The notes under the pieces are model-generated. The model worked only from the letters and a program-made list of their open reading frames with translations, was not told where the DNA came from and searched no databases. From an uncultured Desulfovibrio sp. (lineage in GTDB: Bacteria; Desulfobacterota; Desulfovibrionia; Desulfovibrionales; Desulfovibrionaceae), in assembly GCA_964402645.1 (NCBI GenBank), contig CAYOCV010000012.1, positions 36,622 to 100,621 of the forward strand: a DNA stretch of 64,000 nt, given 5' to 3'. Of the stretch, positions 14,792-52,164 are shown in pieces (position 1 is the stretch's first letter; each line of letters starts with the position of its first letter). A program made the position numbers and the translations under genes.

Positions 14792-14840
14792 TTGGCCAGA
14801 AGCGGTAAACAGGCAGGCCCGCCAGCAAATGCACCACGCA

Positions 14841-14870
14841 ACAGGCCCGCCCCACAAGGGACGGGCCTGT
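14841..14870 (+). terminator. Hairpin plus T-rich tract after the activator gene
   Basis: The stem is acaggcccg....cgggcctgt, followed by ctttcttcc. Confidence 0.5.
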
Positions 14871-14936
14871 CTTTCTTCCTATCCTGATGCAGCATCGCCC
14901 GGCGCGAAAAGCCCGCGCCGGGCAACGCCTGCGCGG

Positions 14937-26696: not shown

Positions 26697-27989
26697 ATGA
26701 CTTCGCCGAAGCCCGCCAGCCTCAAGGACATGTACCGCACCCTTCAGGACGATCCGTTTCCGGATTCCCTTACCCTGACGCTGGGCGACACCACCCTGAC
26801 CTACCGCAAGCGCACCTGGACCATCGACGGTGAACGCAAGGGCTTGCGCTACGGCGAAAACCCCGACCAGCCCGCCGCGCTGTACGAACTGGCCGAAGGC
26901 GGCCTGACCCTTGGCGGCGTGGCCTTTCGTGCCGCCGGGCAGGGCCTTGTCTCGGCCATCGCCGAAGAACACATGGTCCAGGCGGGCAAGCACCCCGGCA
27001 AGACCAACCTGACCGACGTGGACAACGGGGTGAACATCCTGCAGTACCTGGCCGCGCGCCCCGCCGCCGTAATCCTGAAGCACAACAACCCGTGCGGGGC
27101 CGCCTGGTCCAATGATGGCGTGGCCGACGCGCTGGACAAGGCCTACAACTGCGACAGAATCGCCGCCTTCGGCGGGGCCGTTGTGGTCAACCGACCGCTG
27201 GACCGCGCCGCCGGTGAACGCATCGCCGCCAACTACTTCGAGGTGGTTGCCGCGCCCGACTTTGAACCCGGCGTGCTGGAACTGCTGCAAACCCGCAAGA
27301 ACCTGCGCATCCTGCGCATGCCCGGCCTGGCCCAGCTCGAAAATTTCGCCGATGCGCCGTTCCTGGACATCAAGAGCCTGACCGACGGCGGCATGGTCAT
27401 CCAGCATTCGTTCCGCAACCGCATCCGCACCGTTGCCGATTTTCTGCCCGCCGAAGCCACCAGCAAGGACGGCGTCACCGTTACCGCCCGCGCGCCCTCC
27501 AAGCAGGAAGCCGACGACCTGCTGTTCGCCTGGGCCGTGGAGTCGGGCGTCACGTCCAACTCGGTCATCTTCGTGCGGAACGGGGCCACCGTGGCCATCG
27601 GCACCGGCGAACAGGACCGCGTGGGCTGCGTGGAACTGGCCATCCACAAGGCCTACACCAAGTACGCAGACTCGCTGGCCTTCGCCGCGCACAACTGCTC
27701 GCTGTACGACCTGAAGCTGAAGGCGGCCACTGACCCGGCGCTGGCCGAATCGCTGGCCGACATCGAACGCCGCACCCAGGAAGAGCGCGGCGGCCTGCCC
27801 GGCACCGTGCTGGTCTCCGACGGGTTCTTCCCCTTCCGTGACGGCGTGGACGTGGCCCTGGCACAGGGCGTTGCCGCCATCGCCCAGCCCGGCGGCTCCA
27901 TGCGCGACCACGAGGTGATCATGGCCGTGAACGAGGCCAGCCCGCAGGTGGCCATGGTGTTTACGGGGCAACGGTCGTTCAAACACTAA
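26697..27989 (+). CDS. purH: AICAR formyltransferase-domain protein (PurH C-terminal domain only)
   Basis: LRYGENPDQPAALY, KHNNPCGAA and the C-terminal GGSMRD motif are present. No MGS-like IMP cyclohydrolase domain is present. Confidence 0.85.
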   Translation: MTSPKPASLKDMYRTLQDDPFPDSLTLTLGDTTLTYRKRTWTIDGERKGLRYGENPDQPAALYELAEGGLTLGGVAFRAAGQGLVSAIAEEHMVQAGKHPGKTNLTDVDNGVNILQYLAARPAAVILKHNNPCGAAWSNDGVADALDKAYNCDRIAAFGGAVVVNRPLDRAAGERIAANYFEVVAAPDFEPGVLELLQTRKNLRILRMPGLAQLENFADAPFLDIKSLTDGGMVIQHSFRNRIRTVADFLPAEATSKDGVTVTARAPSKQEADDLLFAWAVESGVTSNSVIFVRNGATVAIGTGEQDRVGCVELAIHKAYTKYADSLAFAAHNCSLYDLKLKAATDPALAESLADIERRTQEERGGLPGTVLVSDGFFPFRDGVDVALAQGVAAIAQPGGSMRDHEVIMAVNEASPQVAMVFTGQRSFKH

Positions 27990-30776: not shown

Positions 30777-31505
30777 ATGATGGGTAAGCTGCTTTGGATC
30801 GCCATCGCCTACGTCATGGGCTCCATCCCCTTCGGGCTGGTGTTCGCCCGCACCTTCTGCGGGGTGGACCCGCGCACCGGCGGCAGCCGCAACGTGGGGG
30901 CCACCAACGTGGCCCGGCTGTGCGGCACCAAGTGGGGCATGGCCACCCTGTTGTGCGACGCGCTGAAGGGCGCGCTGCCCGTGGCCATCGCCATGTCGTT
31001 CAGCGATTCCGCGTTCTTCCACAGCCTGACGGCGCTGGCCGCCCTGCTGGGCCACCTGTATTCCTGCTTCCTGGGCTTCAAGGGGGGCAAGGCCGTGGCC
31101 ACCACGGTGGGCGTGTTCATTCCGCTGGCTTTCGGGCAACTGGTGCTGGCGGGCATCGCCTGCCTGCTGGTGATCTGGCGCTCCGGCTTCGTCTCGCTGG
31201 GTTCGCTGACCCTGGTCACGGCCCTGCCCGTGTTCCTGCTGGTGTACGGCAAGTGGAAGCTGCTGCCGCTGGCGCTGGTAGTCATGGCCCTGGTGTACTG
31301 GAGCCACCGCGAAAACATCGGGCGTCTGGCGCGCGGTGAGGAAAAGCCCTGGCAGAAGAAGCACCACGACGCTGCGCCCACCGGCAGCACACCTGAAGAG
31401 ACGGGCGCGCCTGAAGCACCTGAAGCGGCGGACGCAAACACCGCCACGGCCTGCGGCTGCGGCTGCGCCGCGCACGGCGAAGCAGACGCCACGTCCGAAA
31501 AGTAG
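30777..31505 (+). CDS. plsY: Glycerol-3-phosphate acyltransferase PlsY with C-terminal extension
   Basis: [23 protein letters not shown] and [10 protein letters not shown] are present. Confidence 0.9.
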
Positions 31506-31593
31506 TTTTCACGGCGTCGCCCCGGCCTTGTTGCCAGTGCCACGGCAAGGCGCCACAACTGCTGCATTGCACGATTTCAAGGAGACCGGCCCA

Positions 31594-33084
31594 ATGCCTT
31601 GTCCCACGTCCAGCACCACGCCCTGCCCCGCACCCGGTCACGACTTTCCGGCCGCGCGCACGCGGATGGAGTATGTCTGCCTTGGCTGCGGAGAGCGCCG
31701 CGGCATCGACGAGCTGCTGTACACCTGCCCCAACTGCGGCGGGGTGTACCTGCTTGAAGACCTCGATTTCGACAAGCTTGCGGCCCAGCGCACCGGCCCG
31801 GAATGGCGCGCCCTGTTCGACGCCCGCGCCGCCACCCGTACCACCGCCCTGCGCGGCATCTTCCGCTTTTACGAGCTGATGGCCCCGGTGCTGGAAGAAG
31901 AGGACATCGTGTACCTTGGCGAGGGCAACACCCCCATCGTCGAGGCGGCCCCCGTGCTGCGCGACGCCGTGGGCATTCCCTTCGCCTTCAAGAACGACGG
32001 CCAGAACCCCAGCGCCTCGTTCAAGGACCGGGGCATGGCCTGCGCGTTCAGCTACCTGAAGGCGCTGGTGCGCAAGCATGGCTGGGACGAGGTGCTGACC
32101 GTGTGCGCCTCTACCGGCGACACTTCCGCCGCCGCCGCGCTGTACGCCTCGTACGTGGGCGGGCCGGTGAAGTCGGTGGTGCTGCTGCCGCACGGCAAGG
32201 TTACCCCGCAGCAGCTTTCGCAGCCGCTGGGCAGCGGGGCCACGGTGCTGGAAATTCCCGGCGTGTTCGACGACTGCATGAAGGTGGTCGAGCACCTGGC
32301 CGAAAACTATCGGGTGGCCCTGCTGAACTCCAAGAACAGCTGGCGCATCCTGGGGCAGGAATCGTACGCCTTCGAGGTGGCCCAGTGGTACGGCTGGGAC
32401 ATGAAGGGCCAGTGCGTGTTCGTGCCCATCGGCAACGCGGGCAACGTCACGGCCATCATGGCAGGCTTCCTGAAGCTGCTGCGCCTTGGGGTCATCGACG
32501 CGCTGCCGAGGGTCATCGGCGTGCAGTCGCACCATGCCGACCCGGTATGGCGCTACTACAGCCAGCCGGACCCGGCCACGCGCACCTATGCGCCCGTCAC
32601 CGTGCAGCCCAGCGTGGCCCAGGCGGCCATGATCGGCAACCCGGTGTCCTTCCCGCGCGTACAGGCGCTGGCGGACAGATTCATCGCGGAAGGGGGCGAA
32701 CGGGCCTTCTCCGTGGTGCAGGTGACCGAGCAGGAGATCATGGACGCCATGATCCGGGGCAACCGCCACGGGCACATTGCCTGCACCCAGGGCGGCGAAT
32801 GCTTGGCCGGGCTGATCAAGGCCCGCGAACTGGGCCTGGTGTCGCCGGACGAGCACGCCGTGCTCGACGCCACCGCGCACAGCCTGAAGTTTGCAGGCTT
32901 TCAGGACATGTACTTCACCAACAGTTTCCCGGCAGAATACGGCGTGACGCCGGACCCCAGCCTGGCCAACGCGCCCGCGCTGGTGGTCAGCCCGGAAGAC
33001 AAGGCCCGCCTGTCGCCAGAGGCCTACACCCTGGCCGCCGCCGAAGCGGTGGTGGCCAAGCTGGGCCTGGCGAAAAAGGCGTAA
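31594..33084 (+). CDS. thrC: Threonine synthase (long form with N-terminal zinc ribbon)
   Basis: CLGCG...CPNCGG is followed by the PLP lysine block NPSASFKDRGMA. Start at MPCPTS (31594) is preceded by AAGGAG. Confidence 0.9.
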   Translation: MPCPTSSTTPCPAPGHDFPAARTRMEYVCLGCGERRGIDELLYTCPNCGGVYLLEDLDFDKLAAQRTGPEWRALFDARAATRTTALRGIFRFYELMAPVLEEEDIVYLGEGNTPIVEAAPVLRDAVGIPFAFKNDGQNPSASFKDRGMACAFSYLKALVRKHGWDEVLTVCASTGDTSAAAALYASYVGGPVKSVVLLPHGKVTPQQLSQPLGSGATVLEIPGVFDDCMKVVEHLAENYRVALLNSKNSWRILGQESYAFEVAQWYGWDMKGQCVFVPIGNAGNVTAIMAGFLKLLRLGVIDALPRVIGVQSHHADPVWRYYSQPDPATRTYAPVTVQPSVAQAAMIGNPVSFPRVQALADRFIAEGGERAFSVVQVTEQEIMDAMIRGNRHGHIACTQGGECLAGLIKARELGLVSPDEHAVLDATAHSLKFAGFQDMYFTNSFPAEYGVTPDPSLANAPALVVSPEDKARLSPEAYTLAAAEAVVAKLGLAKKA

Positions 33085-33334: not shown

Positions 33335-33351
33335 GCATTTTTGCAACGCGC
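33335..33351 (+). promoter_or_regulatory. Candidate activator-binding motif, copy 1 (GCATTTTTGCAACGCGC)
   Basis: It is about 175 nt upstream of the 33511 -24/-12 element. Near-identical copies lie at 33421 and 37178. Confidence 0.35.
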
Positions 33352-33420: not shown

Positions 33421-33437
33421 GCATTTCTGCAACACGC
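33421..33437 (+). promoter_or_regulatory. Candidate activator-binding motif, copy 2 (GCATTTCTGCAACACGC)
   Basis: It matches copy 1 at 15 of 17 positions and lies about 90 nt upstream of the 33511 element. Confidence 0.35.
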
Positions 33438-33510: not shown

Positions 33511-33526
33511 TGGCACGCTCGATGCT
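33511..33526 (+). promoter_or_regulatory. Candidate sigma-54 promoter for the GRE operon
   Basis: TGGCACGCTCGATGCT has a perfect -24 TGGCAC and a -12 TGC at canonical spacing. It is 76 nt upstream of the GRE ATG. Confidence 0.6.
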
Positions 33527-33601: not shown

Positions 33602-36073
33602 ATGACCACCTGCTGCCTGTCCCCCCAGGAAGTGCGCCTGCAAAACCCGGAACCGGACAAGACCGGGCGCACGCGCGTCTACTCCATTCTCGAGACCTTC
33701 CAGTATCAGGTTCCGTTCATCGACGTGGAGCGCGCCCGCTACTTCACCGAGTCCATGCGCGCCACCGAGGGCCAGTTGCTGTCCCTGCGCTGGGCCAAGG
33801 CGCTGCAGAACTGCGCCGAGAAGATGACCGTGTACATCACCCCGAACCAGCTCATCGCCGGCCGCGCCGGGCAGTTTGGCCGCTACGGCATCCTGTACCC
33901 GGAAATCGACGGCGACTTCTACGGCGTGGTCATGCGCGACCTGCCGAACCGCGCCAAGAGTCCCTTCCGCATCTCGGACGCGGACATCAACATCATCCTC
34001 GATGAAATAGCCCCCTACTGGGAAGGCAAGACCTACCACGAGCATCTCAACGGCGCGCTGCCCGAAGAGTTGCGCAACGTCACCTACGCCGACGCTTCGG
34101 GCCTCAAGTCCAAGTTCGTGGTCAGTGAAACCTCTTCCTACCGTTCGGCCCTGCAATGGGTGCATGACTACGACAAGGTGCTCCGGCGCGGCATGCTGGA
34201 CATCAGGGCCGAAATGCTGGCCCGTCTGGAAAGGCTGGACCCGGACAGCCCCATCGACAACTGGGAGAAGAAGCCGTTCCTGCAAGCCATGGTCATCGTG
34301 TGCGACGCCTTCATGACCTGGGCAAAACGCCACGCCGACCTCGCCCGCGCCCAGGCCGCCGCCGAAGCCGACCCCGCCCGCAGGCAGGAGCTGCTGCATC
34401 TGGCCGACATCTGCGACCGTGTGCCCGCCCACCCGGCCCGCACCTTTCACGAGGCCGTGCAAGCGCAGTGGTTCGTCCAGATGTTCTCGCGCATCGAGCA
34501 GAAATCCAGCGCCATCATCTCCAACGGACGCATGGACCAGTATTTACATCCCTTCTATGCCAGGGACCTTGCCGAAGGGCGCATCACCGAAGAAAGCGCC
34601 ATGGAGCTTCTGGAGTGCATGTGGGTGGAGATGGCCCAGTTCATCGACCTGTACATCAACCCCACCGGCAACGAGTTCAACGAAGGCTACGCCCACTGGG
34701 AGGCCGTGACCATCGGCGGCCAGACCCCCGACGGACATGACGCCACCAACGACCTGACCTACCTGTTCCTGCGCTCCAAGCGCGAATTTCCGCTGAACTA
34801 TCCGGACCTGGCCGCCCGCATCCACTCCCGCTCGCCGGAACGCTTCCTGTACGAAGTGGCCGAGACCATCAAGGACGGCTCCGGCTTTCCCAAGCTGATC
34901 AACGACGAGGAAGTGGTGCCGCTGTATGTGGCCAAGGGCGCGCCCTTCAGGGACGCCCTGGACTACGCCGTGTCGGGCTGCACAGAGGCCCGCATGCCCA
35001 ACCGCGACACCTACACCTCTGGCTGCGTGTACATCAACTTCGCCACGGCCATGGAAATGACCATGCACAACGGGCGGATGCTGAAGTACGGACAGGACGA
35101 CCTGGTGGGCCTGGAAACCGGCGACCCCACCACCTTCGCCACCTGGGAGCAGTTCTGGGACGCCTACACGGCCCAGCACATGAACCTGCTGTCCAAGGCC
35201 TTCACCCAGCAGTCCGTGGTGGACTGCCTGCGTCCGCAGCACTTTGCCTCGCCTTTTGCCTCGGTGCTGCACGACCTGTGCGTTGCAGACTGCAAGGACC
35301 TGCAATCACCCCGTATCGAAGGTGGCGTGGATTTCTCGTACTTTGAATTCCTGGGCTACGGGACGGTGGTCGACTCGCTGGCGGCGGTCAGGAAGCTGGT
35401 GTTCGAGGACAAGAAGGTGCCCATGGCCGATCTGGTGGCCGCGTTGCGCAACGACTTTGAAGGACGCGAGCCCCTGCGCGCCCTGCTGCGCTCCGCCCCC
35501 TGCTACGGCAACAACAATCCGTACGCGGACGCCATCGCCAGGGAAGTGGACCGCATGACCCAATTGTTTGCGGAAAAATATTCCAAGGTACGGGGCATCA
35601 ACTGCGACGTGCGCTACGTGCCCATCACCTCGCACGTGCCCTTCGGCAAGGTGGTCAGCGCCACCCCCAACGGCCGCAAGGCGTGGACGCCCCTGTCCGA
35701 CGGCTCGTCCGCCTCGCACGGCGCGGACCGCAACGGCCCCACGGCGGTGCTGTTGTCCAACTACCATTCCAAGAACTGCGACCTGAAGAACCGCGCCTCG
35801 CGCCTGCTGAACATCAAGCTGTCGCCCAGGTGCGTGGCCGGAGAAACCGGCACCCGCAAGCTTGTGGATGTCATCCGCAGTTGGTGCGACCTGAAGTTGT
35901 GGCACCTGCAATTCAACATCATCAACAAGGAAACCCTGCTCAAGGCCAAGGCCGATCCGGACAGGTACCGGGGCCTGCTGGTGCGCATTGCGGGGTACAG
36001 CTCGTACTTCTGCGACCTTTCGCCCGACTTGCAGGACGACGTGATCAACCGCACCGAACACGACGAGATGTAG
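33602..36073 (+). CDS. Glycyl radical enzyme, eliminase class, sulfonate-type (IslA/IseG/HpsG/HpfG-like)
   Basis: 823 aa from the ATG at 33602, with GGGGAG upstream. The C-terminal glycyl-radical motif is [10 protein letters not shown] and the Cys loop is VSGCTEA (C-x-E). YRSALQ and a later RYVPIT Arg are positioned like sulfonate-binding residues (see findings). Confidence 0.9.
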
Positions 36074-36144: not shown

Positions 36145-37047
36145 ATGCAGGACAAGGAACGGACAGGCATCATCTTCAACATACAGAAGTATTCCGTGCA
36201 TGACGGCGCGGGCATCCGCACCATGGTCTTCTTCAAGGGCTGCCCGTTGCGCTGCGCCTGGTGCAGCAACCCCGAATCGCAGCAACTGCGGCCGGAACGC
36301 GGGTTCAACCGCTACAAGTGTCTTTCTCCGGCTGTGTGCGGCTACTGTATCCCCGCCTGCGCCAAAGGGTGCATCCTTGACATAGAGGGCCTGCTGGCCA
36401 TCGACTACACCCGCTGTGACGGCTGCCTGCTCTGCGCCCAGGCCTGCCCTACCGGGGCCATGAGCGTCTACGGCGAAAGCCTGAGCGTGGCCGAGGTGCT
36501 GGCGTCGGTGGAGCAGGACGCGGTGTTCTATGCCCGATCCGGCGGCGGCATGACCCTGTCCGGGGGCGAGGTGATGCATCAGCCGGACTTTGCCGTGGCG
36601 CTGCTGCGCGAGGCCCGCCGCAGGCACATCAACACGGTGATGGAAACCTGCGGCCACTGCGACGGCGACGCGCTGGTCGAGGCCTGCCGTCATCTGGACA
36701 CGTTGATCTTCGACATCAAGCACCTGTCCAGCGATGTACACCGCGATGGCACCGGCGTCGGCAACGAACGCATTCTGGAAAACTTCCTCCGCGTGTGTGC
36801 CGCATTTCCCGCATTGCCCATCATTGCCCGCACCCCGGTCATCCCCGGCTTCAATGACACGGAGGCCGACATCCGGGCCATTGCCCGGTTTCTGCCCAAG
36901 CGCGCCAACCTCGTCCACGAGCTGCTTCCCTACCACCGCATGGGCCAGACCAAATACGAATTCCTTGGGCGCGCCTTTCCCATGGGCGGCGCGCAACTGG
37001 CCACCGGCACACTGCGGCGGTTGCAGGACGTGTCCATGGCCCGCTGA
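36145..37047 (+). CDS. Glycyl-radical-enzyme activating enzyme (radical SAM)
   Basis: FNIQKYSVHDGAGIRTMVFFKGCPLRCAWCSNPES contains CxxxCxxC. Two ferredoxin-like Cys clusters follow (CGYCIPAC, CDGCLLCAQACP). Confidence 0.9.
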   Translation: MQDKERTGIIFNIQKYSVHDGAGIRTMVFFKGCPLRCAWCSNPESQQLRPERGFNRYKCLSPAVCGYCIPACAKGCILDIEGLLAIDYTRCDGCLLCAQACPTGAMSVYGESLSVAEVLASVEQDAVFYARSGGGMTLSGGEVMHQPDFAVALLREARRRHINTVMETCGHCDGDALVEACRHLDTLIFDIKHLSSDVHRDGTGVGNERILENFLRVCAAFPALPIIARTPVIPGFNDTEADIRAIARFLPKRANLVHELLPYHRMGQTKYEFLGRAFPMGGAQLATGTLRRLQDVSMAR

Positions 37048-37094: not shown

Positions 37095-37124
37095 CCGGCA
37101 TCCCGAAAGGGATGCCGGTTTTTT
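37095..37124 (+). terminator. Intrinsic terminator after the activase
   Basis: ccggcatccc-gaaa-gggatgccgg is followed by TTTTTT. Confidence 0.8.
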
Positions 37125-37177
37125 GCGCCATGTGTTCCGGATGGTGCAAATCGGCACAGCAGGCCGCCCGGCACGTC

Positions 37178-37194
37178 GCGTTTTTGCAACACAC
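37178..37194 (+). promoter_or_regulatory. Candidate activator-binding motif, copy 3 (GCGTTTTTGCAACACAC)
   Basis: It has the same core as 33335 and 33421. A related inverted copy (GTGATTTTTGCGCACGC on the minus strand) lies at 37349..37365. Confidence 0.3.
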
Positions 37195-37555: not shown

Positions 37556-37571
37556 CGGCACCATTCTTGCT
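37556..37571 (+). promoter_or_regulatory. Candidate sigma-54 promoter for the SDR/ABC/dehydrogenase operon
   Basis: CGGCACCATTCTTGCT has GG and GC at canonical spacing. It follows an AT-rich tract at 37300..37550. Confidence 0.6.
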
Positions 37572-37991: not shown

Positions 37992-38765
37992 ATGGCCGAA
38001 ATGTTCTGCCTCTCCGGCAGGACCGCGCTGGTCACCGGCGGCAATTCCGGCCTTGGCGAAGCCATGGCCACGGCACTGGGCCTTGCCGGGGCACGCGTGC
38101 TGCTGCTGGCCCGCAGGCAGCCTGAACTGGACGAGGCTGCGGCCCGCCTGACCGCCCTCGGCATCGACGCCCTGACCATCTCCGCCGACCTCACCGCCCC
38201 CGACGCCATCGCCGCCAGCGCGGCACAAGCCCTCGCCCTGTCCCAAACCGCGTCAGGCCAGGTGGACATCCTGGTCAACGCAGCGGGCGTCAACCTGCGC
38301 CAGCCGTTCCAGGACATCACCCCCGAAGCCTGGCGACGCCAGATCGACCTGCACCTTTCCACACCCTTCTTTCTTGTCCAGGCACTGGCCCCCGGCATGC
38401 GCGAACGCGGCTGGGGCCGCATCATCAACATCGCCTCCCTGCAATCCTTCCGGGCCATGCCCGACAGCGCGCCCTACGGAGCGGCCAAGGGCGGCATTGT
38501 GCAGCTTACCCGCGCCATGGCCCAGGCCTGGGGACCGCACGGCATCACCTGCAACGCCATCGCTCCCGGCTTTTTCCCCACCGCGCTCACCGCGCCGGTG
38601 TTCGACGACCCGGACGCCGTGGCCCGCCATGCGGCGCAAACCTGCCTTGGCCGCAACGGACGCATGGAGGACCTGCACGGCCTGACCCTGTTTCTCGCTA
38701 GCAACGCATCATCGTATGTCACCGGACAAACGATCATGCTCGATGGTGGATTCTCGGCGAAATGA
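37992..38765 (+). CDS. Short-chain dehydrogenase/reductase (classical SDR)
   Basis: [15 protein letters not shown] (TGxxxGxG), NAAG, and S...YGAAKGG (YxxxK) are present. The alternative start at 37902 would add a Pro-rich 30 aa. Confidence 0.8.
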
Positions 38766-38843: not shown

Positions 38844-39926
38844 ATGAAAAAACGTCTAGCCACTGCCCTTGCACTCCTTCTTGTCGGCGCATTCATGGTC
38901 GCTGGCCTCACCCCCCTCTGCGCCAGCGCTGCGGACAAGCCTGAGATCCGCACCAGCGCGCAACCCTGCCTGCACGGCATGCCGTTGTGGTATGCGGAAA
39001 AGGCTGGCTGGCTGGCAAAGGCCCCGTTCACCAACTCCTTCATGCTGTTCGCCTCGGGCGCGCCCCAGGTGGAAGCGCTGGCCGCCAACCAGTGGGACGT
39101 AGGGGCCATGGGCGCCCTGCCCACCATGATGGCCAGCATGCGCTACGGCTACAAGTTCATCGGCATTTCCAACGACGAATCGGAAACCAACGACCTGTGG
39201 GTGCGCCCCGATTCGCCGCTGCTGAAGAACAAGGGCGCCAACCCCAAGTTCCCCGACATCTTCGGCAGCGCCGACGACTGGAAGGGCAAGAAGGTGCTGG
39301 CCACCACCGTGTCCACGGGCCACTACGCCCTCACCGCCACCCTGGCTGCGCTGGGCCTGAAGGACACCGACGTCTCGCTGGTCCATATGGAGCAGGGCCA
39401 GGCCGTCACCGCGTTCAACGCGGGTGAAGGCGACGTGATCCAGCTGTGGGCACCCTTCAGCTACATTGCCGAGGCCAAGGGCTGGAAAAAGGTCTCCTCC
39501 GGCAGCAAGGCCGGGGTGGTCATTCTGGGCGGCATCGGCGTGCGCAAGGACTTTGCCGAAAAGTTCCCCGACCTCGTGGTGGACTGGCTGGACGTGTACA
39601 TGCGCGGCATCGAGATGATGAAGAACGAGCCGGGCAAGAGCGTGGAGCCGCTGCTGAACTACTTCACCGGCTACTGCGGCCTGGAACTGACCCGCGACCA
39701 GGTGGAGAAGGAATTCAAGTACCGTCCCCTGTACGACGTGAACGAACAGGTGCGCCTGCTGGAAGACCCGGCCAAGACCGCCGCGTGGATGGACGGCGTG
39801 GCCAAGTTCATGCTGACCCAGGGCCGTATCACCACCAAGGAATACGACCGCTACGCCAAGAGCAACTACGGGATCGACCCGTCGTTCATGAAGAAGCTGG
39901 CTGAACGCCGCGCCGCCGCGAAATAA
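38844..39926 (+). CDS. ABC transporter substrate-binding protein, NitT/TauT (SsuA/TauA/NMT1-like) family
   Basis: Signal peptide MKKRLATALALLLVGAFMVAG..ASA is followed by an NMT1-like fold pattern. It is followed by TauC/SsuC-like permeases. Confidence 0.8.
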   Translation: MKKRLATALALLLVGAFMVAGLTPLCASAADKPEIRTSAQPCLHGMPLWYAEKAGWLAKAPFTNSFMLFASGAPQVEALAANQWDVGAMGALPTMMASMRYGYKFIGISNDESETNDLWVRPDSPLLKNKGANPKFPDIFGSADDWKGKKVLATTVSTGHYALTATLAALGLKDTDVSLVHMEQGQAVTAFNAGEGDVIQLWAPFSYIAEAKGWKKVSSGSKAGVVILGGIGVRKDFAEKFPDLVVDWLDVYMRGIEMMKNEPGKSVEPLLNYFTGYCGLELTRDQVEKEFKYRPLYDVNEQVRLLEDPAKTAAWMDGVAKFMLTQGRITTKEYDRYAKSNYGIDPSFMKKLAERRAAAK

Positions 39927-40060: not shown

Positions 40061-40900
40061 ATGCAGACCACCACAGACGACGTACAGGACACCGTATCGC
40101 TGGAAGTCGCAAAGGCCGGCTATCTGGCCTCCGCCGCCCGCGAACACTGGATATCCGTCGTCAGCCTGATCGTCTTCCTGATCATCTGGGAACTGATCTG
40201 CCGGTTCGAGATCATCGGCCCCTACCAGTTGGTTCCCCCATCCGAGATCCTTGGCGTCTTCGTGGACAAATTCTCCGAGCCCAATCCCGATGGCGCGCTG
40301 CTGCAAGAGCACGCCTGGGCCAGCCTGTCGCTGGCGCTGGCCGGATTCGGGGCGGCGGTATGCATAGGCGTGCCGCTGGGGCTGCTGATGGGCTGGTACA
40401 AGCCGGTCAACCTGCTGGTGCGCCCGCTGTTCGACGCGGTGCGGCCCATTCCGCCCATCGCCTGGATACCCATCGCCATCCTGTGGCTGGGCATCGGCAT
40501 TCACGCCAAGGCGTTCATCATCTTTCTGGCGGCGTTCGTGCCCTGCGTGATCAACTCGTACACGGGCATCCGCCTGACCAACCCGGTGCTGATCCGCGTT
40601 GCCCGCATCTACGGCGCCTCCAATTTCGAAACCTTCCGCAAGATCGGCGTTCCATCGGCCATTCCCATGGTGTTCACGGGCATCAAGCTGTCGCTCAACG
40701 CCGCGTGGACCACCCTGGTGGCGGCGGAACTGCTGGCCGCATCGCAGGGGCTTGGCTACATGATCCAGCTCGGCCGCAGGCTGGCCCGCCCGGACATCAT
40801 CATCGTGGGCATGCTGGCCATCGGCCTGCTGGGCGCGCTGATGTCGTGGGGGCTGACCAGGATCGAGGCCCGCTTTGCATCCTCCCGGAGGCTCTCATGA
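40061..40900 (+). CDS. ABC transporter permease 1 (TauC/SsuC-like)
   Basis: The block VRPIPPIAWIPIAILWLGIG is typical of NitT/TauT permeases. AGGAG lies before ATG 40061. Confidence 0.85.
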   Translation: MQTTTDDVQDTVSLEVAKAGYLASAAREHWISVVSLIVFLIIWELICRFEIIGPYQLVPPSEILGVFVDKFSEPNPDGALLQEHAWASLSLALAGFGAAVCIGVPLGLLMGWYKPVNLLVRPLFDAVRPIPPIAWIPIAILWLGIGIHAKAFIIFLAAFVPCVINSYTGIRLTNPVLIRVARIYGASNFETFRKIGVPSAIPMVFTGIKLSLNAAWTTLVAAELLAASQGLGYMIQLGRRLARPDIIIVGMLAIGLLGALMSWGLTRIEARFASSRRLS

Positions 40901-41679
40901 TCGGTCGACTCGGCAAGCGGCTGATGCCCGCCGCGCTCACCACCGGATCGCTGCTGGCCTTCGTGGTCTTCTGGCAGGTGGTATCGCTGTACACCAATCC
41001 CGACTTCCTGCCCTCGCCGGGGCGCGTATGGGACGAGGCCGTGCGCCTGTTCCACACCCCCGTGGGCGGCAAGGACATTCTGACCCACGTGGGGTTCAGC
41101 CTCAGGCGCGTGCTTACCGCCTACCTGTGGGCCACCGTGCTGGGGCTGCCGCTGGGCCTGTGCATGGGGTGGAACCGGACGTGCGAAAAGATCGTCTCGC
41201 CCATCTTCGAACTGCTGCGGCCCATTCCGCCCATCGCCTGGATACCCATCGCCATCCTGTGGCTGGGCGTGGCCGAAGGCTCCAAGGTGTTCATCTGCTT
41301 CGTGGGGTCCTTCGTCATCCTGGTGCTGAACTCGTACACCGGCATGCGCTACGTGGACCCGCTGCTCATCGACGCGGCCCGCTCATTCGGGGCGTCGCGC
41401 AGGCAACAGTTCTTCAACGTGGCCGTGCCCGCGTGCCTGCCCTCCATCTTCGCCGGGTTGCAGAACGCGCTGTCCATGGCCTGGATGTGCGTGCTGGCGG
41501 CGGAACTGGTGGGGGCGCGCGAGGGCGTGGGGTTCATCATCATCCAGGGCATGGACCTGAACCGCCCGCCCATGATCCTTGTAGGCATGATCCTGATCGG
41601 CATCGTGGGTTCGCTGCTGGCGGCCTCGCTGCGCTGGGCGGAACGGGCGCTGTGCCCCTGGCGGAGGGAGCTGGTATGA
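40897..41679 (+). CDS. ABC transporter permease 2 (TauC/SsuC-like paralog)
   Basis: LRPIPPIAWIPIAILWLGVA is present. The start has an ATGA overlap with permease 1. Confidence 0.85.
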   Translation: MIGRLGKRLMPAALTTGSLLAFVVFWQVVSLYTNPDFLPSPGRVWDEAVRLFHTPVGGKDILTHVGFSLRRVLTAYLWATVLGLPLGLCMGWNRTCEKIVSPIFELLRPIPPIAWIPIAILWLGVAEGSKVFICFVGSFVILVLNSYTGMRYVDPLLIDAARSFGASRRQQFFNVAVPACLPSIFAGLQNALSMAWMCVLAAELVGAREGVGFIIIQGMDLNRPPMILVGMILIGIVGSLLAASLRWAERALCPWRRELV

Positions 41680-42443
41680 CCGGGCAGACTGCCAAGATCG
41701 AATGCCGCGACCTGTCAAAGGCCTTTCACGTGCCGGGGCAGGACCAGCGGCTGCTGGTTCTCGACCGCGTGTCGCTGTCGGTGCGCGAAAACGAATTCCT
41801 GGTTGTCCTGGGGCCGGGCCAATGCGGCAAGACCGTGCTGCTCAACTGCATCGCCGGGCTCATCGAACCTTCTGCCGGGCAGGTGCTGCTGGACGGCACG
41901 CCGGTCACCAGGCCGGGCCCGGACCGGGCCATGGTCTTCCAGCGCTACGCCCTGATGCCGTGGAAGACCGTGGAGCACAACGTGGCCTTCGGCCTGGCCG
42001 TGCGCGGCGTCCCCGTGAAGGAGCGGCTGGCTGCGGCCCACCACTACATCGACCTTGTGGGGTTGAAGGGCTTTGAAAAGGCCTACCCGGAACAGCTTTC
42101 CGGCGGCATGAAGCAGCGCGTGGGCATTGCCCGCGCCTACGCCAACGCCCCGGACATCCTGCTGATGGACGAACCCTTCGGCGCGCTGGACGCCCAGACC
42201 CGCTACGCCATGGAGCAGGACCTGCGCTCCATCTGGGAAAAGGAAAAGCGCACGGTCATCTTCGTCACCAACAACATCGAAGAGGCCATCTACCTGGGCG
42301 ACAGGATACTGGTCATGTCCGTGCTGCCCGGCAGGGTCAAGGCGGAATACGACATTGGCATCCCCTCGCCACGCAACTACACCGACCCTGCTTTTCTCAC
42401 CTACAGAAAGCAGATCTCCAACGCCACGGACCTTTCCCTATAG
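41676..42443 (+). CDS. ABC transporter ATP-binding protein 1 (TauB/SsuB-like)
   Basis: GPGQCGKT, MVFQRYALMPWKTV, LSGGMKQRVGIARA and LLMDEPFGALD are present. The start has an ATGA overlap with permease 2. Confidence 0.9.
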   Translation: MTGQTAKIECRDLSKAFHVPGQDQRLLVLDRVSLSVRENEFLVVLGPGQCGKTVLLNCIAGLIEPSAGQVLLDGTPVTRPGPDRAMVFQRYALMPWKTVEHNVAFGLAVRGVPVKERLAAAHHYIDLVGLKGFEKAYPEQLSGGMKQRVGIARAYANAPDILLMDEPFGALDAQTRYAMEQDLRSIWEKEKRTVIFVTNNIEEAIYLGDRILVMSVLPGRVKAEYDIGIPSPRNYTDPAFLTYRKQISNATDLSL

Positions 42444-42453
42444 GAGACATGTC

Positions 42454-43227
42454 ATGGAGACTGCCGCCACGTATCCTTACGCCCAGAACCGCAAGGTCAA
42501 GGTGCAGGTGGAAAACCTCACCAAGTGTTACGACGACCTGCTGGTGCTCGATAAGATCAACTTCGACATCTATCAGGGCGAACTGCTGTGCATCGTGGGC
42601 CCCACGGGCTGCGGCAAGACCACGTTCCTGAATTGCCTTTCACAGTTCATCCCCATGACGGAAGGCTCCATCCTGGTGGACGGCGTGCCTGCCTCGCCGG
42701 AAATCCACAACATCGCCTTCGTGTTCCAGGAGGTGTCCGCCATCCCCTGGCTGACGGTGGAGGACAACATCCGCTTCGGCCTGCGCATCAAGCGCCTGCC
42801 GGAGGCGGAGATAGAGCGGCGCACCGAGCGCATGCTCGACCTGGTGGGCCTGCGCAAGTACCGCACCTATTTCCCGCAGCAGCTTTCGGCCAGCATGGAG
42901 CAGCGCGTGGTCATCGCGCGCAACTTCGCCATCAACCCCGACCTGCTGCTGATGGACGAGCCTTACGGCCAACTGGACGTGAAGCTGCGCTACTACCTGG
43001 AGGACGAGCTGATCCGCATCTGGAAGGAGCTGGGCAGCACGGTGGCCTTCATCACCCACAACATCGAAGAAGCCATCTACCTTGCCGAACGCATCCTGAT
43101 CCTGTCGCCCAAGCCCTCCACCATCAAGGAGGAGGTCATCGTGGATCTGCCCCGCCCCCGCCAGTACGACGACCCAGAATTCGTCCGGCTGCGCGAGTAC
43201 GTGACTGAACGCATCAAGTGGTGGTAG
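42454..43227 (+). CDS. ABC transporter ATP-binding protein 2 with degenerate signature motif
   Basis: GPTGCGKT and LLMDEPYGQLD are present. The signature position reads LSASMEQRVVIARN instead of LSGGxxQR. TAGGAGA lies before ATG 42454. Confidence 0.85.
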   Translation: METAATYPYAQNRKVKVQVENLTKCYDDLLVLDKINFDIYQGELLCIVGPTGCGKTTFLNCLSQFIPMTEGSILVDGVPASPEIHNIAFVFQEVSAIPWLTVEDNIRFGLRIKRLPEAEIERRTERMLDLVGLRKYRTYFPQQLSASMEQRVVIARNFAINPDLLLMDEPYGQLDVKLRYYLEDELIRIWKELGSTVAFITHNIEEAIYLAERILILSPKPSTIKEEVIVDLPRPRQYDDPEFVRLREYVTERIKWW

Positions 43228-43446: not shown

Positions 43447-44307
43447 ATGCATATCGGATTCATCGGAGCAGGGCTGATGGGAGGACCGCTGGCCCGCAAT
43501 CTCATCCGGGCCGGAAAGAACGTACTGGTCTACGACCTGAGCGCAGAGGCCGCCGCGCGCACCGCAGGCGTGGGGCCCACCGGGCGCACCGCCGCCGCGC
43601 TGGCCGACCTGGCCGGGTGCGATCTTGTCTTCACCAGCCTGCCCCTGCCCGCCCACGTGGAAGGCGTGATGCTGGGCGACGACGGGCTGCTGCAACGGCT
43701 GAAGCCCGGCGCCATCCATGTGGAGCTGAGCACCATCGATCCGCAGACCTCGGCCCGACTGGAGGCCGCCGCCAAGGCCAGAGGCTGCGCCTTCCTGCAA
43801 TGCACCCTGGGCAAGACGCCCGCCCACGCGGAAAAGGCCGAGGAACCCATGTTCATCGGCGGCGACCAGGCCGTGTTCGACAGCCTGGCCGACATCTGGC
43901 CGATCATCGGCAGCCCTGCCTACTACATGGGCGGCGTGGCCGCCTCGTGCGCGGTCAAGCTGATCAGCAACATGGTGGGCATGACCAACCTGGCCGTGCT
44001 GGCCGAGGGCCTGCGCATTGGCGAAAAGGCGGGCATCGAGCGCGGCGCGCTCATCGCGCTGCTGCAGGATACCGGCGCGCGCAGCTTTCAGATGGACGTG
44101 CGCGGCCCGTGGATTGCCGCCGACGACTACGCCAACCGCTTCGGTCTCGACCTTGCCCTGAAGGACGTGCGCCTGGGCTGCGAGATGGCCGCCGCCTGGG
44201 GCATGAAGATCCCGGCCATGTCCGCCGCGCTGGAAACCTTCCGGCGCGCCAGCGCTGCCGGGCTGGGGCGCGAAGACTGCAACGCCGTGTACAAGGCGAC
44301 CGAATAA
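43447..44307 (+). CDS. Beta-hydroxyacid dehydrogenase (HIBADH/YihU/GarR family)
   Basis: MHIGFIGAGLMGGPLARNL (GxGxxG) is present, with a central lysine block (CTLGKTPAHAE) and a helical C-terminal domain. GGGAGA lies before the ATG. Confidence 0.85.
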   Translation: MHIGFIGAGLMGGPLARNLIRAGKNVLVYDLSAEAAARTAGVGPTGRTAAALADLAGCDLVFTSLPLPAHVEGVMLGDDGLLQRLKPGAIHVELSTIDPQTSARLEAAAKARGCAFLQCTLGKTPAHAEKAEEPMFIGGDQAVFDSLADIWPIIGSPAYYMGGVAASCAVKLISNMVGMTNLAVLAEGLRIGEKAGIERGALIALLQDTGARSFQMDVRGPWIAADDYANRFGLDLALKDVRLGCEMAAAWGMKIPAMSAALETFRRASAAGLGREDCNAVYKATE

Positions 44308-44401: not shown

Positions 44402-45856
44402 ATGTTGAGTAATCCCGAATTGATGCGTCAGGCATGCTACATCGACGGCGCGTGGGTGGGGGCCGACGGCGGCGCCACCATTGCCGTACACAACCCCGCC
44501 ACCGGGGCGCAGCTGGGCACGGTGCCCGCATGCGGCACGGCGGAAACCGCCCGCGCCATCGCCGCCGCCGCCAGCGCCTGGCCTGCCTGGCGCGCCATGA
44601 CCGCCCTGCAGCGGGCGGACATCATGCTGCGCTGGCGCGACCTGATCATGCAGAACCAGGACGACCTGGCCAAACTGATGACCCTTGAACAGGGCAAGCC
44701 CCTGCCCGAAGCGCGCGGCGAAATCGGCTTCGCGTGCAGCTTCCTGCGCTGGTTCGCGGAAGAAGCCCGCCGCATGTACGGCGACATCGTGCCCGCCCCG
44801 TGGCCGGGCAAGCGCATCCTGGTCACCCGCGAACCGGTGGGCGTGGTGGGCATCATCACCCCCTGGAACTTCCCCACGGCCATGATCGGCCGCAAGGTGG
44901 GCGCGGCCTTTGCCGCCGGGTGCCCGGTGGTCATCAAGCCCGCCAGCCAGACCCCCTATTCCGCGCTGGCCCTGGCCGGGCTGGCCGAGCAGGCGGGCGT
45001 GCCCAAGGGCGTATTCAACGTCATCACCGGCTCCGCCCGCGAGATCGGCGGCGAGATGACATCCAACCCCGCCGTGCGCAAGATAAGCTTCACCGGGTCC
45101 ACCGAGGTGGGCAAGGAACTGATCCGCCAGTGCGCCTCCACGGTGAAGAAGGTGTCCATGGAGCTTGGGGGCAACGCGCCGTTCCTCATCTTTGACGACG
45201 CGGACATCGACCTTGCCATCGTCGGGGCCATGGCCAGCAAATACCGCAACACCGGTCAGACCTGCATCTGCGCCAACCGCTTCTACGTGCAGGAAGGCGT
45301 GTACGACCTGTTCGTGCAGAAGCTGACCGTGGCCGTTTCCGCCCTGAAGGTGGGCAACGGGATGGACGACGGCGTGACCCAGGGGCCGCTCATCGACGGC
45401 AAGGCGCTGGCCAAGGTGGAAGCGCAGGTCAAGGACGCCCTGGCCAAGGGCGGCACCCTGGTCTGCGGCGGCAACCGGCACAGCATGGGCGGCAACTTCT
45501 TCGAGCCCACGATCATTGCCGGGGCCACCCCGGACATGGCCTTCGCCAGGGAGGAAACCTTCGGCCCGCTGGCCCCGGTGTTCCGCTTCAAGACCGAGGA
45601 AGAGGCCATCGCCATGGCCAACGACACGGAATTCGGCCTTGCGGCCTACGTCTACACCCGTGACCTTGGCGCGGCCTTCCGCGTGTCCGGGGCGCTGGAA
45701 TACGGTCTGGTGGGCGTGAACGAAAGCCTCATCTCCACCTGCGAGGCCCCCTTCGGCGGCGTGAAGGAAAGCGGCATGGGCCGCGAAGGTTCGCGCCACG
45801 GCCTCGATGACTACACGGTGATCAAGTACACCTGCATGGGCGGTCTTGGCGGCTAG
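44402..45856 (+). CDS. NAD(P)+ aldehyde dehydrogenase, GabD/SlaB-like (succinate-semialdehyde dehydrogenase subfamily)
   Basis: ITPWNFP, FTGSTEVG, catalytic MELGGNAP and GQTCICANR, and EETFGPL are present. The overall pattern is strongly GabD-like. Confidence 0.9.
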   Translation: MLSNPELMRQACYIDGAWVGADGGATIAVHNPATGAQLGTVPACGTAETARAIAAAASAWPAWRAMTALQRADIMLRWRDLIMQNQDDLAKLMTLEQGKPLPEARGEIGFACSFLRWFAEEARRMYGDIVPAPWPGKRILVTREPVGVVGIITPWNFPTAMIGRKVGAAFAAGCPVVIKPASQTPYSALALAGLAEQAGVPKGVFNVITGSAREIGGEMTSNPAVRKISFTGSTEVGKELIRQCASTVKKVSMELGGNAPFLIFDDADIDLAIVGAMASKYRNTGQTCICANRFYVQEGVYDLFVQKLTVAVSALKVGNGMDDGVTQGPLIDGKALAKVEAQVKDALAKGGTLVCGGNRHSMGGNFFEPTIIAGATPDMAFAREETFGPLAPVFRFKTEEEAIAMANDTEFGLAAYVYTRDLGAAFRVSGALEYGLVGVNESLISTCEAPFGGVKESGMGREGSRHGLDDYTVIKYTCMGGLGG

Positions 45857-45951: not shown

Positions 45952-45983
45952 GTCGGGCATGCGAAGCGACGCGCATGCCCGAC
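45952..45983 (+). terminator. 12-bp perfect hairpin after the aldehyde dehydrogenase
   Basis: gtcgggcatgcg-aagcgacg-cgcatgcccgac. No strong T-run follows. Confidence 0.45.
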
Positions 45984-46244
45984 CCTCTTGTCCAGAAAAT
46001 TTGCGGTCCAGAGAATCTGCAATCCGGGAAACCCTCAGCCCGGCGGCCCGTACCGCCAGAGGGTGACCCACTGGGCGGGCGCGCCCACATGCTGGCCCGT
46101 GCAGGGCGTGCCCGTCTTTCCTTCCCCCCCGCCTTGGCCTATATCTGGCCATGGCGGAGTGCAATCGCCGCCCCCTGCCCCCGGCCATGCCGCCCCTTCC
46201 GGCGCCGGGCGGAGAATGACCGATCCCTCTGCCAAGGGAGCGAC

Positions 46245-47624
46245 ATGCTTTCGGAATACCTCGACCAGTTGCTGGACACCTTCAAGGACGCCATCTGCAT
46301 CACCGACCGCGAGGGGACCATCGTGTACCTCAACCGGCGGCACAGCGAACTGACCGGCATCCCGAAGGAGGATCTGCTCGGCAAGTCGGCCATCGAGATG
46401 ATGCGCCACGGCGTGTTCGACGTGGTGCTCAACCCCGAAATCGTCAAGACCCGCCAGGGCACCACGTCCATCCAGAACATTTCCAATGGCCGCAAGCTGT
46501 TCCTTGACGGCAGCCCCATCCTCGACCGCCAGGGCGAGGTGGTCTACGTGGTCACCTTCATGCGCGACGTGACCACCCTGGTGGAACTGAAGCGCGAACT
46601 GGCCTCGCAAAAGGAACTGCTGGACACCTTCCAGAGCCTGAGCAGCGCAAGCCCGGAGCGCACCGAAAACTATCCGGTGATGCTGCACAGCACTGTCATG
46701 CGCACCATATGCGAGCAGTTGGAAGGCATCGCCGAAACCGACGCCACCGCACTGCTGCTGGGCGACACGGGGGTGGGCAAGGACGTGCTGGCCCGGCGGC
46801 TGCACGCCATCAGCCCGCGCGCGGGCAAGCCGTTCATCAAGGCGGACTGCGCCAGCATACCCGCCAACCTCATCGAGACGGAGCTGTTCGGCTACACGCC
46901 GGGCACCTTTTCCGGCGGCAACAGGCACGGCAAGATGGGCCTCATAGAGGCCGCCGCCGGGGGCACCCTGTTCCTTGACGAGATCGGCGAACTGCCCATG
47001 TCCATGCAGTCGCGCCTGCTGCGCCTGCTGCAGGACCGGGAAGTGATGCGCGTGGGTTCCACCACCTCCGCGCGGGTGGACGTGCGCATCGTGGCTGCCA
47101 CCAACAAGGACCTGGAAAAGGAAGTGCGCGACGGGCGCTTTCGCAGCGACCTGTACTACCGCCTGAAGGTGGCGGTGATCCGCATCCCCCCGCTGCGCCA
47201 GCGCAAGGCGGACATCGTGCCCCTGGCGCAGGGCTTCCTGCGGTTCTACTGCGCAAAGTACCGCCGCAACCTCACCCTGTCGCCCCTGGCCGAGGACGCC
47301 CTGCGCGGCCATCACTGGCCCGGCAACGTGCGCGAACTGGAAAACCTGATCCAGGGCCTTGTGGTCACTTGCAAGCGCCCCGCCATCGAACCGCGCGACC
47401 TGCCCTTTGTCCGCACCGCGCCGCTCAGGACAGGCCCCTGCCTGGACACGGGGCCGGGGGTGGACATCGAGGGGCGCAGCTTCAAGGACATCATGCATGA
47501 ACTGGAAGGACGCGTGCTGCGCCATGCGTTGGCCCGTTACGGCACCATTGCCGAGGTGGCCAAGCAGTTCAGCGTGGACCGCAGCACCATCTTCCGCAAG
47601 CTGAAGGACGGGCAGGACGACTAG
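46245..47624 (+). CDS. Sigma-54-dependent transcriptional activator with PAS sensor (paralog of 13370..14791)
   Basis: PAS region (ICITDREGTIVYLNRRHSELTG). AAA+ domain with LLLGDTGVGKD, ETELFGY, GTFSGG and LFLDEIGEL. HTH VAKQFSVDRSTIFRKLK. AAGGGAG lies before ATG 46245. Confidence 0.9.
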   Translation: MLSEYLDQLLDTFKDAICITDREGTIVYLNRRHSELTGIPKEDLLGKSAIEMMRHGVFDVVLNPEIVKTRQGTTSIQNISNGRKLFLDGSPILDRQGEVVYVVTFMRDVTTLVELKRELASQKELLDTFQSLSSASPERTENYPVMLHSTVMRTICEQLEGIAETDATALLLGDTGVGKDVLARRLHAISPRAGKPFIKADCASIPANLIETELFGYTPGTFSGGNRHGKMGLIEAAAGGTLFLDEIGELPMSMQSRLLRLLQDREVMRVGSTTSARVDVRIVAATNKDLEKEVRDGRFRSDLYYRLKVAVIRIPPLRQRKADIVPLAQGFLRFYCAKYRRNLTLSPLAEDALRGHHWPGNVRELENLIQGLVVTCKRPAIEPRDLPFVRTAPLRTGPCLDTGPGVDIEGRSFKDIMHELEGRVLRHALARYGTIAEVAKQFSVDRSTIFRKLKDGQDD

Positions 47625-47676: not shown

Positions 47677-47878
47677 CGGTGGCCAGCCGGGAGGCGCCCG
47701 CCTTCCCCCCCCTGAAGCCGCGATCCGTACTTCACCCTTCGCCCCCCAACCGCATTGCCGTTTGCGCCGGAACGGGCGGCGAGCGCCCCCGCACGCCACG
47801 CCCAGCGCCGCTCACGGCCTTGCGCTGGCGGGGTTCTTCTGGCACTGGCAAGGGAACATTCCGCGACAAGGAGAACGC

Positions 47879-51689: not shown

Positions 51690-52164
51690 TTCAGCCGCAG
51701 CCCTCATCCCGCCTTCACATCCGGCCAAGCCCATGCGGTTTCCGCGTGCGCACCGCTGCCTGCCGCCTCCTCCCGCACTTTTCTTTGCCCGCCCTGTGCA
51801 GTAAGCACACGCAGACCTTGCCACGCGGCGCGAAAGCGCCTAAATCATACCCAGACAGTAGGCAATAACCCCACTCACGTGGGGTATTTCATGCCGTCGC
51901 CTTGGCGTTGCGGAGCCACCCTGGTTGCATGGCGTCACCAAAACCGGTCGACTGCACACAGCCATCTTGACGCCCGTCCACGCCTGGGGCAGTGCAACCC
52001 CTTGCGGGTCCGGACTTTTCCGACCGTTACGTATCGCGTCGCCGCCGCTGCCGCTTTCCGCACGCAGCCCCGACGCCCCGCGCAAGCCCGAACAGACGCG
52101 CGCCCCCCGTGCCGCGCGCCGCACCCCGCGCCGTCATCCGCGCGCAGCCCACGGAGGTTTCAGC

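Follow-up and report, generated by a model that had tools for sequence, protein, structure and literature searches.

Sulfoquinovose breakdown and algal metabolism both yield 2,3-dihydroxypropane-1-sulfonate (DHPS) in very large amounts. HpsG of Bilophila wadsworthia (BwHpsG; PDB 6LON) is a glycyl radical enzyme (GRE) described as a (2S)-DHPS sulfolyase (Liu et al. 2020 PNAS, as relayed in PMC13450708 and PMC8397734). In the literature, HpsG cleaves the C-S bond, whereas HpfG (Klebsiella oxytoca, Enterococcus gilvus), likewise a GRE with (S)-DHPS as its substrate, is a dehydratase and cleaves a C-O bond. IseG of Desulfovibrio (Nitratidesulfovibrio) vulgaris Hildenborough (DvIseG; PDB 5YMR) and IslA of B. 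wadsworthia (BwIslA; PDB 7KQ3) are sulfite-lyases of isethionate, and IslA is tied in Bilophila to a microcompartment and to taurine metabolism. Here we analyze a stretch of 64,000 nucleotides (the window; 66% G+C) from an uncultured Desulfovibrio sp. (GenBank assembly GCA_964402645.1, contig CAYOCV010000012.1), in which an earlier note had pointed to a GRE gene at positions 33602 to 36073. We conclude that the encoded protein (hereafter, the GRE) is almost certainly a sulfonate C-S lyase. It is probably an orthologue of HpsG, with DHPS as its substrate, in a Nitratidesulfovibrio-type sulfate reducer.

The features of a sulfonate-binding GRE are well documented. The key residues of IslA are C468, E470, and G805, with R189, Q193, and R678 as sulfonate ligands (PMC8473560). 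According to a 2026 review, the corresponding triads are Arg183/Gln187/Arg672 in HpsG and Arg187/Gln191/Arg676 in IseG (PMC13450708). The IseG triad was described by Xing et al. and is missing from CutC and other GREs (PMC6453916); its Gln position is occupied by Asp216 in CutC and by His160 in HypD, and the R/Q/R triad is lacking there (PMC8473560, PMC6453916).

Active site of the glycyl radical enzyme

The gene and the codons on which the argument turns are as follows.

33602 to 36073, plus strand: probable HpsG-type glycyl radical sulfonate C-S lyase, 823 aa, called on homology, pocket signature, and tree
34142 to 34144 and 34154 to 34156, plus strand: R181 and Q185, in the motif SSYRSALQ at residue 178
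34511 to 34513, plus strand: A304, in the pocket
34979 to 34981 and 34985 to 34987, plus strand: C460 and E462, in the motif SGCTE at residue 458
35612 to 35614, plus strand: R671, in the motif DVRYVPIT at residue 669
35624 to 35626, plus strand: I675, in the pocket
35993 to 35995, plus strand: G798, in the motif RIAGYSS at residue 795

The open reading frame (ORF) translates into 823 residues followed by a stop codon. A Shine-Dalgarno-like GGGGAG lies 8 nt upstream of the ATG at 33602, and the first methionine does not change across an alignment of 16 homologous sequences. All residues that the earlier note had named as catalytic or ligand-binding (G798, C460/E462, R181/Q185, and R671) were found in the translation exactly as numbered there.

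Membership in the GRE superfamily is indicated by a match to TIGR01774 (598 bits), by E values of 0 to GRE crystal structures in a phmmer search, and by the PF02901 and PF01228 (PFL-like and Gly_radical) domains present in homologues. RIAGYSS, with G798, supplies the C-terminal glycyl radical motif (RVxG[FWY]-like), and SGC460-T-E462 supplies the C-x-E Cys loop of GRE 1,2-eliminases. A gene for a cognate radical-SAM activase, also typical of the superfamily, lies next to the GRE (36145 to 37047). CutC, the diol and glycerol dehydratases, and HypD share the ten-stranded barrel fold, the CXE motif, and the Gly loop with the GRE at about 28% identity.

When the GRE was searched with phmmer against all PDB sequences, the three best matches were the sulfonate C-S lyases HpsG (6LON, 1412 bits), IseG (5YMR, 1285 bits), and IslA (7KQ3, 1190 bits), all with E values of 0 and thus well past anything that chance would give. 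CutC reached at most 507 bits, and the diol, glycerol, and hydroxyproline enzymes about 430 to 450 bits. In alignments without local gaps, R181/Q185/R671 fall on the crystallographic ligands R183/Q187/R672 of HpsG, R187/Q191/R676 of IseG, and R189/Q193/R678 of IslA, and C460/E462 align with C462/E464, C466/E468, and C468/E470, respectively; G798 falls on the homologous position of all three structures (G805 in IslA). The six residues are invariant in the 16-sequence alignment, in 120 database homologues together with the three PDB references, and in 80 genome loci compared, save one locus that is truncated at the C terminus.

These alignments bear out the central claim of the earlier note, namely, that the pocket binds a sulfonate rather than choline, a diol, or hydroxyproline. 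The note had relied on residue numbers for IslA, which agree with the published ones (PMC8473560), and on a constant offset of 7 to 8 from them. The offset is real: the 7KQ3 alignment begins at residue 20 of the GRE and residue 27 of IslA (offset 7), shifts to 8 after a one-residue insertion in IslA, and returns to 7 after a later one-residue gap in IslA. Its remark that HpsG has the same sulfonate ligands is likewise correct (PMC13450708). Given 71% identity to a crystal structure solved with ligand, these residues can be assigned to the active site without a model.

Substrate specificity

The GRE is 71.4% identical to BwHpsG, 67.1% to DvIseG, and 62.3% to BwIslA (compared with one another, HpsG and IseG are 63.7% identical and IseG and IslA 73.4%), and it aligns with BwHpsG over 819 residues with only two one-residue gaps. 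Because the margin of HpsG over IseG is modest, we sought independent discriminators. At 58 positions the GRE agrees with HpsG, while IseG and IslA agree with each other and differ. Those near the ligands include Tyr180, Ala183, Leu184, Ser303-Ala304, Cys475-Val476, and Ile675, where IseG and IslA have Phe, Ser, Ile, Gly-Thr, Gly-Ala, and Phe. The GRE thus differs from the IseG-type pocket (Phe186, Ser189, Ile190, Gly309, Thr310, and Phe680 in IseG numbering) at every position, and from IslA, for example, at Phe682, which aligns with Ile675. Three of the residues, Ile190, Thr310, and Phe680, make van der Waals contacts to isethionate in IseG (PMC6453916), and they correspond to Leu184, Ala304, and Ile675 in the GRE, as in HpsG. 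The smaller side chains (Thr to Ala, Phe to Ile) would fit the extra CH2OH of DHPS in the pocket.

This set of residues separates the subfamilies cleanly over about 200 sequences. The GRE, BwHpsG, and 103 of the top 120 database homologues have the identical 16-position pocket signature YRALQSACTECVRVIG. The signature of IseG and IslA, FRSIQGTC[T/I]EGARVFG (CIE in IslA, CTE in IseG and the GRE), forms a separate class with a few intermediates among the 120, and the same split recurs in the 80 genome loci. In a neighbor-joining tree the GRE and BwHpsG fall in a clade of 118 sequences that excludes IseG and IslA, with moderate support (88 of 100 bootstraps). The earlier note had assigned the GRE to the sulfonate family and left the exact substrate open; the family stands, and identity, tree, and pocket signature together narrow the substrate to the HpsG (DHPS) type.

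Mixed pocket signatures occur in a small number of homologues (P0112, P0113, P0116, P0117, P0009, and P0011, and the genome locus L048), for example, an HpsG-type beta1 segment (YRALQ) combined with the IseG-type Gly-Thr, Gly-Ala, and Phe. By their residues, they are candidates for other sulfonate specificities in the family.

Could the GRE instead be an isethionate sulfite-lyase, an orthologue of IseG or IslA that yields sulfite and acetaldehyde? It shares 67% identity with the IseG of D. vulgaris, which belongs to the same genus-level lineage. Fold, sulfonate triad, CTE motif, and C-S elimination type are common to the two, and BwHpsG itself is weakly active on isethionate. The preference of BwHpsG for DHPS over isethionate is, however, about 100-fold, and IslA does not accept DHPS (PMC8397734). 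The pocket of the GRE, which follows HpsG at each of the seven discriminating positions (among them all three that contact isethionate in IseG), and its grouping with HpsG in the tree make the isethionate assignment very unlikely. A neighboring gene for an HpsO-like short-chain dehydrogenase (SDR; see below) also speaks for C3 sulfonate chemistry. Further evidence comes from Nitratidesulfovibrio sp. HK-II, Nitratidesulfovibrio sp. 1201_IL3209, and the metagenome-assembled genome (MAG) Rs511_bin20. Each of these related genomes has both an orthologue of the GRE (92 to 94% identity, HpsG-type signature) and a separate gene with the IseG-type signature whose product is 84 to 86% identical to DvIseG (locus pairs L015/L050, L003/L063, and L002/L055). 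The presence of this separate paralogue in relatives indicates that the GRE of the window is not the isethionate lyase of the lineage.

Family models and public annotation

The NCBIfam "equivalog" model NF048011 (SfplDhtHpsGDes) matches the GRE at 1493.5 bits against a cutoff of 1000. As controls, DvIseG scored 1555.6, BwHpsG 1514, and IslA 1487.8 bits. Since IseG and IslA score as high as HpsG, the model covers the whole sulfonate-lyase family and says nothing on substrate, and we rejected it as a discriminator.

The model also bears the product name "(2S)-3-sulfopropanediol dehydratase," which describes the HpfG reaction and conflicts with the literature on HpsG. NCBI and Logan assemblies already contain the exact protein sequence of the GRE. 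Most members of its 90%-identity cluster, which include proteins of N. termitidis, Nitratidesulfovibrio sp. HK-II, Nitratidesulfovibrio sp. D1, and Desulfovibrio sp. A2, are automatically annotated with this name. Taken literally, the name would make the GRE a DHPS dehydratase that forms 3-sulfopropionaldehyde by C-O cleavage. We consider this extremely improbable: in the literature, HpfG is the dehydratase and HpsG the enzyme that breaks the C-S bond, and a model that also takes in the proven sulfite-lyases IseG and IslA is no guide to function. The GRE is distant from HpfG, scoring only 439 bits against a cutoff of 1000 with the HpfG equivalog NF048009. Family scans found no HpfD-type 3-sulfopropionaldehyde reductase (an Fe-dependent alcohol dehydrogenase [Fe-ADH]), the partner of HpfG, in the cluster.

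Gene neighborhood

The GRE gene is followed after 71 nt by the activase gene and appears to share its upstream signals with a second operon.

33338 to 33349 and 33424 to 33435, plus strand: two copies of the motif TTTTTGCAACGC, a possible binding site for a sigma-54 activator
33511 to 33526, plus strand: putative sigma-54-type promoter TGGCACGCTCGATGCT, 91 nt upstream of the GRE start, with one mismatch to the consensus
36145 to 37047, plus strand: HpsH-like radical-SAM activase of 300 aa that carries a ferredoxin-like insert and, as its CX3CX2C motif, CPLRCAWC
37095 to 37128, plus strand: hairpin resembling an intrinsic terminator (10-bp stem with 8 G-C pairs, then TTTTTT), right after the activase gene
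37181 to 37192, plus strand: third copy of the motif, TTTTTGCAACAC
37556 to 37571, plus strand: second putative sigma-54-type promoter, CGGCACCATTCTTGCT, ahead of the operon for the SDR, ABC importer, and dehydrogenases

The activase has the Pfam domains Radical_SAM, Fer4_12, and Fer4 and scores 432.6 bits with NF048010 (cutoff, 430) and 321.9 bits with TIGR02494 (cutoff, 174). The hairpin behind it suggests that the GRE and its activase form their own transcription unit.

The promoter-like site ahead of the GRE occurs at the same position (-91/-92) in four orthologous loci (L001 to L003 and L015), and CGGCACCATTCTTGCT is found with identical sequence at the equivalent place in L001 to L003. 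Because sigma-54-type sites are no more frequent across the 64-kb window than expected by chance (31 seen versus 46 expected), we base these two putative promoters on their position and their conservation in the orthologous loci. The 12-nt motif TTTTTGCAACRC has three copies in the 64 kb, all on the plus strand and only in the intergenic regions before the two operons (0.46 expected; 3 of 100 shuffles reach three copies). It is possibly a binding site for the sigma-54 activator encoded at the end of the second operon.

The genes of the second operon are the following.

37992 to 38765, plus strand: HpsO-like SDR (translation probably starts at M31, position 37992, within an ORF open from 37902)
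38844 to 39926, plus strand: periplasmic substrate-binding protein of the SsuA/TauA (NMT1-like) ABC family (Pfam NMT1_2, OpuAC)
40061 to 40900 and 40897 to 41679, plus strand: two ABC permeases (Pfam BPD_transp_1)
41676 to 42443 and 42454 to 43227, plus strand: two ABC ATPases (Pfam ABC_tran)
43447 to 44307, plus strand: beta-hydroxyacid dehydrogenase (HIBADH/tartronate-semialdehyde reductase/YihU family), 286 aa, 80% identical to PDB 9K2J
44402 to 45856, plus strand: GabD-like aldehyde dehydrogenase of the succinate-semialdehyde/sulfolactaldehyde dehydrogenase family, 484 aa (Pfam Aldedh)
45975 to 47624, plus strand: PAS-domain sigma-54-dependent transcriptional activator (NCBIfam sigma-54 activator families; probably translated from 46089 or 46245)

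The best PDB matches of the SDR are 9PVQ (335 bits) and 8WWF, RpHpsO, labeled "(R)-DHPS dehydrogenase HpsO" (274 bits). It retains Ser145-x-Gln147, Tyr158, and Lys162 of RpHpsO, in which Gln147 is reported to recognize the C2 hydroxyl of R-DHPS. The substrate-binding protein matches TIGR01728 (SsuA_fam) at 93 bits, under the cutoff, and TauA (6SSY) weakly. The aldehyde dehydrogenase scores 712 bits with TIGR01780 (cutoff, 646), 683 with E. coli GabD (3JZ4), and 604 with 8C54. The structure closest to the beta-hydroxyacid dehydrogenase, 9K2J, is labeled only "3-hydroxyisobutyrate dehydrogenase," and a literature search found no relevant publication for 9K2J or 9PVQ. Homologues of this dehydrogenase (47 to 70% identity to 9K2J) adjoin HpsG-type GREs in 13 other genome loci examined; none with more than 30% identity adjoins an IseG-type GRE in the examined loci. 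Homologues of the sigma-54 activator adjoin most GRE loci of both types. Synteny of the entire arrangement extends to Nitratidesulfovibrio sp. D1, Nitratidesulfovibrio sp. 1201_IL3209, and one MAG.

We considered and rejected two further links to sulfonate metabolism. The PALP gene upstream of the GRE (31336 to 33084) was tried as a CuyA-like desulfonating enzyme, but its product matches threonine synthase (TIGR00260, 178.5 bits; cutoff, 167). The D-cysteinolate pathway known from sulfate and sulfite reducers uses HpsN, CuyA, CuyB, and CuyC without a GRE (PMC12814064), and none of these is in the cluster. The cluster of the window lacks an Amidohydro_2 (PF04909) gene, which is found repeatedly in the vicinity of HpsG-type GREs, frequently together with a gene for a TauE-type exporter, in Bilophila, Desulfovibrio sp. 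7SRBS1, and Humidesulfovibrio (L082, 65 to 898; L083, 18008 to 19150; L084, 15902 to 16741).

Other loci in the window

The window contains a second organosulfonate locus at 9892 to 16679 and therefore has desulfonation systems of two kinds, with about 17 kb between them. The TRAP genes of the window (9892 to 12956) belong to this locus and not to that of the GRE.

9892 to 11820, minus strand: fused DctQM TRAP permease
11898 to 12956, minus strand: TRAP DctP binding protein
13322 to 14791, plus strand: PAS sigma-54 activator
14937 to 16679, minus strand: sulfoacetaldehyde acetyltransferase Xsc (TIGR03457, 776.9 bits; cutoff, 676.4)

A flavin amine-oxidase-like gene (6655 to 8223) and a gene for an M24/creatinase-like peptidase (7949 to 9331) adjoin the TRAP/Xsc locus. 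PurH is split into two genes, one for each half, which lie about 20 kb from each other and flank the sulfonate island, and family scans recognized two further genes.

26697 to 27989: AICAR transformylase part of PurH
47762 to 48478: IMP cyclohydrolase/MGS-like N-terminal part of PurH
51925 to 53877, plus strand: CoA-disulfide-reductase-like flavoprotein
60523 to 62460, minus strand: aldehyde:ferredoxin oxidoreductase family protein

Discussion

The GRE is an uncharacterized orthologue of a known enzyme, and the family, its structure, and its ligand residues have already been published. It has in common with the HpsG of Bilophila the Gly and Cys/Glu motifs, the sulfonate triad, the 16-position signature, and an adjacent activase, and both hosts are Desulfovibrionaceae that respire sulfite. 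The two systems differ in that Bilophila reduces sulfite only, whereas the host of the GRE is a sulfate reducer, and in the genes around the enzyme. What is mildly new here is the composition of the locus, with its ABC importer and three dehydrogenases, and the problem in the NCBIfam annotation.

Several points weigh against the assignment to DHPS. Besides the modest margin over IseG (71% versus 67% identity), the GRE lies in a more divergent sub-branch, as most Desulfovibrio HpsG-type proteins are 80 to 83% identical to BwHpsG. The GRE and its 90% cluster are known from sequence alone, and NF048011 lends no substrate support. The identity of the pocket refers to literature-named residues and conserved active-site segments, as compared by sequence. 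An AlphaFold2 model built on the 16-sequence alignment had a mean pLDDT of 65.5, with values below 50 in the active-site strands (160 to 187, 301 to 308, 397 to 476, 673 to 677, and 793 to 801), so that its pocket geometry is unusable. Foldseek searches with this poor model returned 6LON, then 5YMR, and then 7KQ3, all at about 12 Å rmsd. The homologues available for modeling were all at least 64% identical to the GRE and would not deepen the alignment. In the gene neighborhood, the HpsKLM TRAP importer of Bilophila is not at the GRE locus and an SsuA/TauA-family ABC system is found instead, and the beta-hydroxyacid and GabD-like dehydrogenases are not needed by the published HpsGH pathway.

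Sequence divergence and gene context could also indicate an enzyme of the HpsG clade that acts on another 2-hydroxy-alkanesulfonate or on the other enantiomer; candidates would include (R)-DHPS, sulfolactaldehyde hydrate, sulfolactate, and 2-hydroxypropanesulfonate. Such a reading would agree with the distance from BwHpsG and with an importer and dehydrogenases, including the HpsO-like SDR, unlike those of Bilophila. All literature-named first-shell residues, however, and segments 176 to 187, 426 to 435, 471 to 481, and 669 to 682 are identical to those of BwHpsG. The Cys-loop and Gly-loop segments differ from BwHpsG only at flanking positions (e.g., 457, 463, 796, and 801). The HpsO-like and GabD-like neighbors, moreover, are DHPS and sulfolactaldehyde enzymes in characterized pathways (PMC11131964), which would keep DHPS as the substrate of the pathway. 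We therefore regard a different substrate as unlikely, although less so than isethionate, and favor (2S)-DHPS. The analysis itself establishes the sequence, its homology, the identity of the pocket residues, the gene context, and the paralogues in relatives; the substrate, the chemistry, the control by the sigma-54 activator, and the roles of the neighboring dehydrogenases are inferences.

By homology to the published work on BwHpsG, IseG, and IslA, we envisage the following mechanism. The adjacent radical-SAM activase would place a radical on G798, from which it would move to C460. The sulfonate of DHPS would be held by R181, Q185, and R671, with its C2 hydroxyl hydrogen-bonded to E462, and the C460 thiyl radical would abstract the C2 hydrogen. 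Scission of the C-S bond would then release sulfite, and the resulting keto radical would regain a hydrogen from C460 to give hydroxyacetone. The sulfite would be respired to H2S.

HpsO and a GabD-type enzyme of marine bacteria take R-DHPS via sulfolactaldehyde to sulfolactate (PMC11131964), and the island of the window might accordingly deal with the two enantiomers. We put forward only tentatively, as a speculation that we consider doubtful, that the whole locus is a DHPS island with two branches, through which a sulfate reducer could use both enantiomers of environmental DHPS. In such an island, the SsuA/TauA-type ABC system would import DHPS, and HpsG would cleave the (S) form into sulfite and hydroxyacetone. 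Oxidation of (R)-DHPS via sulfolactaldehyde to sulfolactate would fall to the HpsO-like SDR and the GabD-like aldehyde dehydrogenase, possibly joined by the 9K2J-like beta-hydroxyacid dehydrogenase. The (R)-DHPS branch would provide reducing equivalents and a second substrate for desulfonation, and a single sigma-54 activator would control both operons. We did not find a pairing of radical and oxidative DHPS routes in one anaerobe in the accessible literature.

For the family, the "(2S)-3-sulfopropanediol dehydratase" labels should not be taken as substrate calls, and they are unreliable for the type of reaction as well. For the organism, if the assignment to HpsG is correct, this Nitratidesulfovibrio lineage would convert DHPS to sulfite and on to H2S by the radical HpsG route. 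The GRE would be an oxygen-sensitive radical enzyme that frees sulfite from a small plant- and alga-derived sulfonate for respiration. Environmental and termite-gut sulfate reducers would then join those already known to use this route, a modest extension of known biology.

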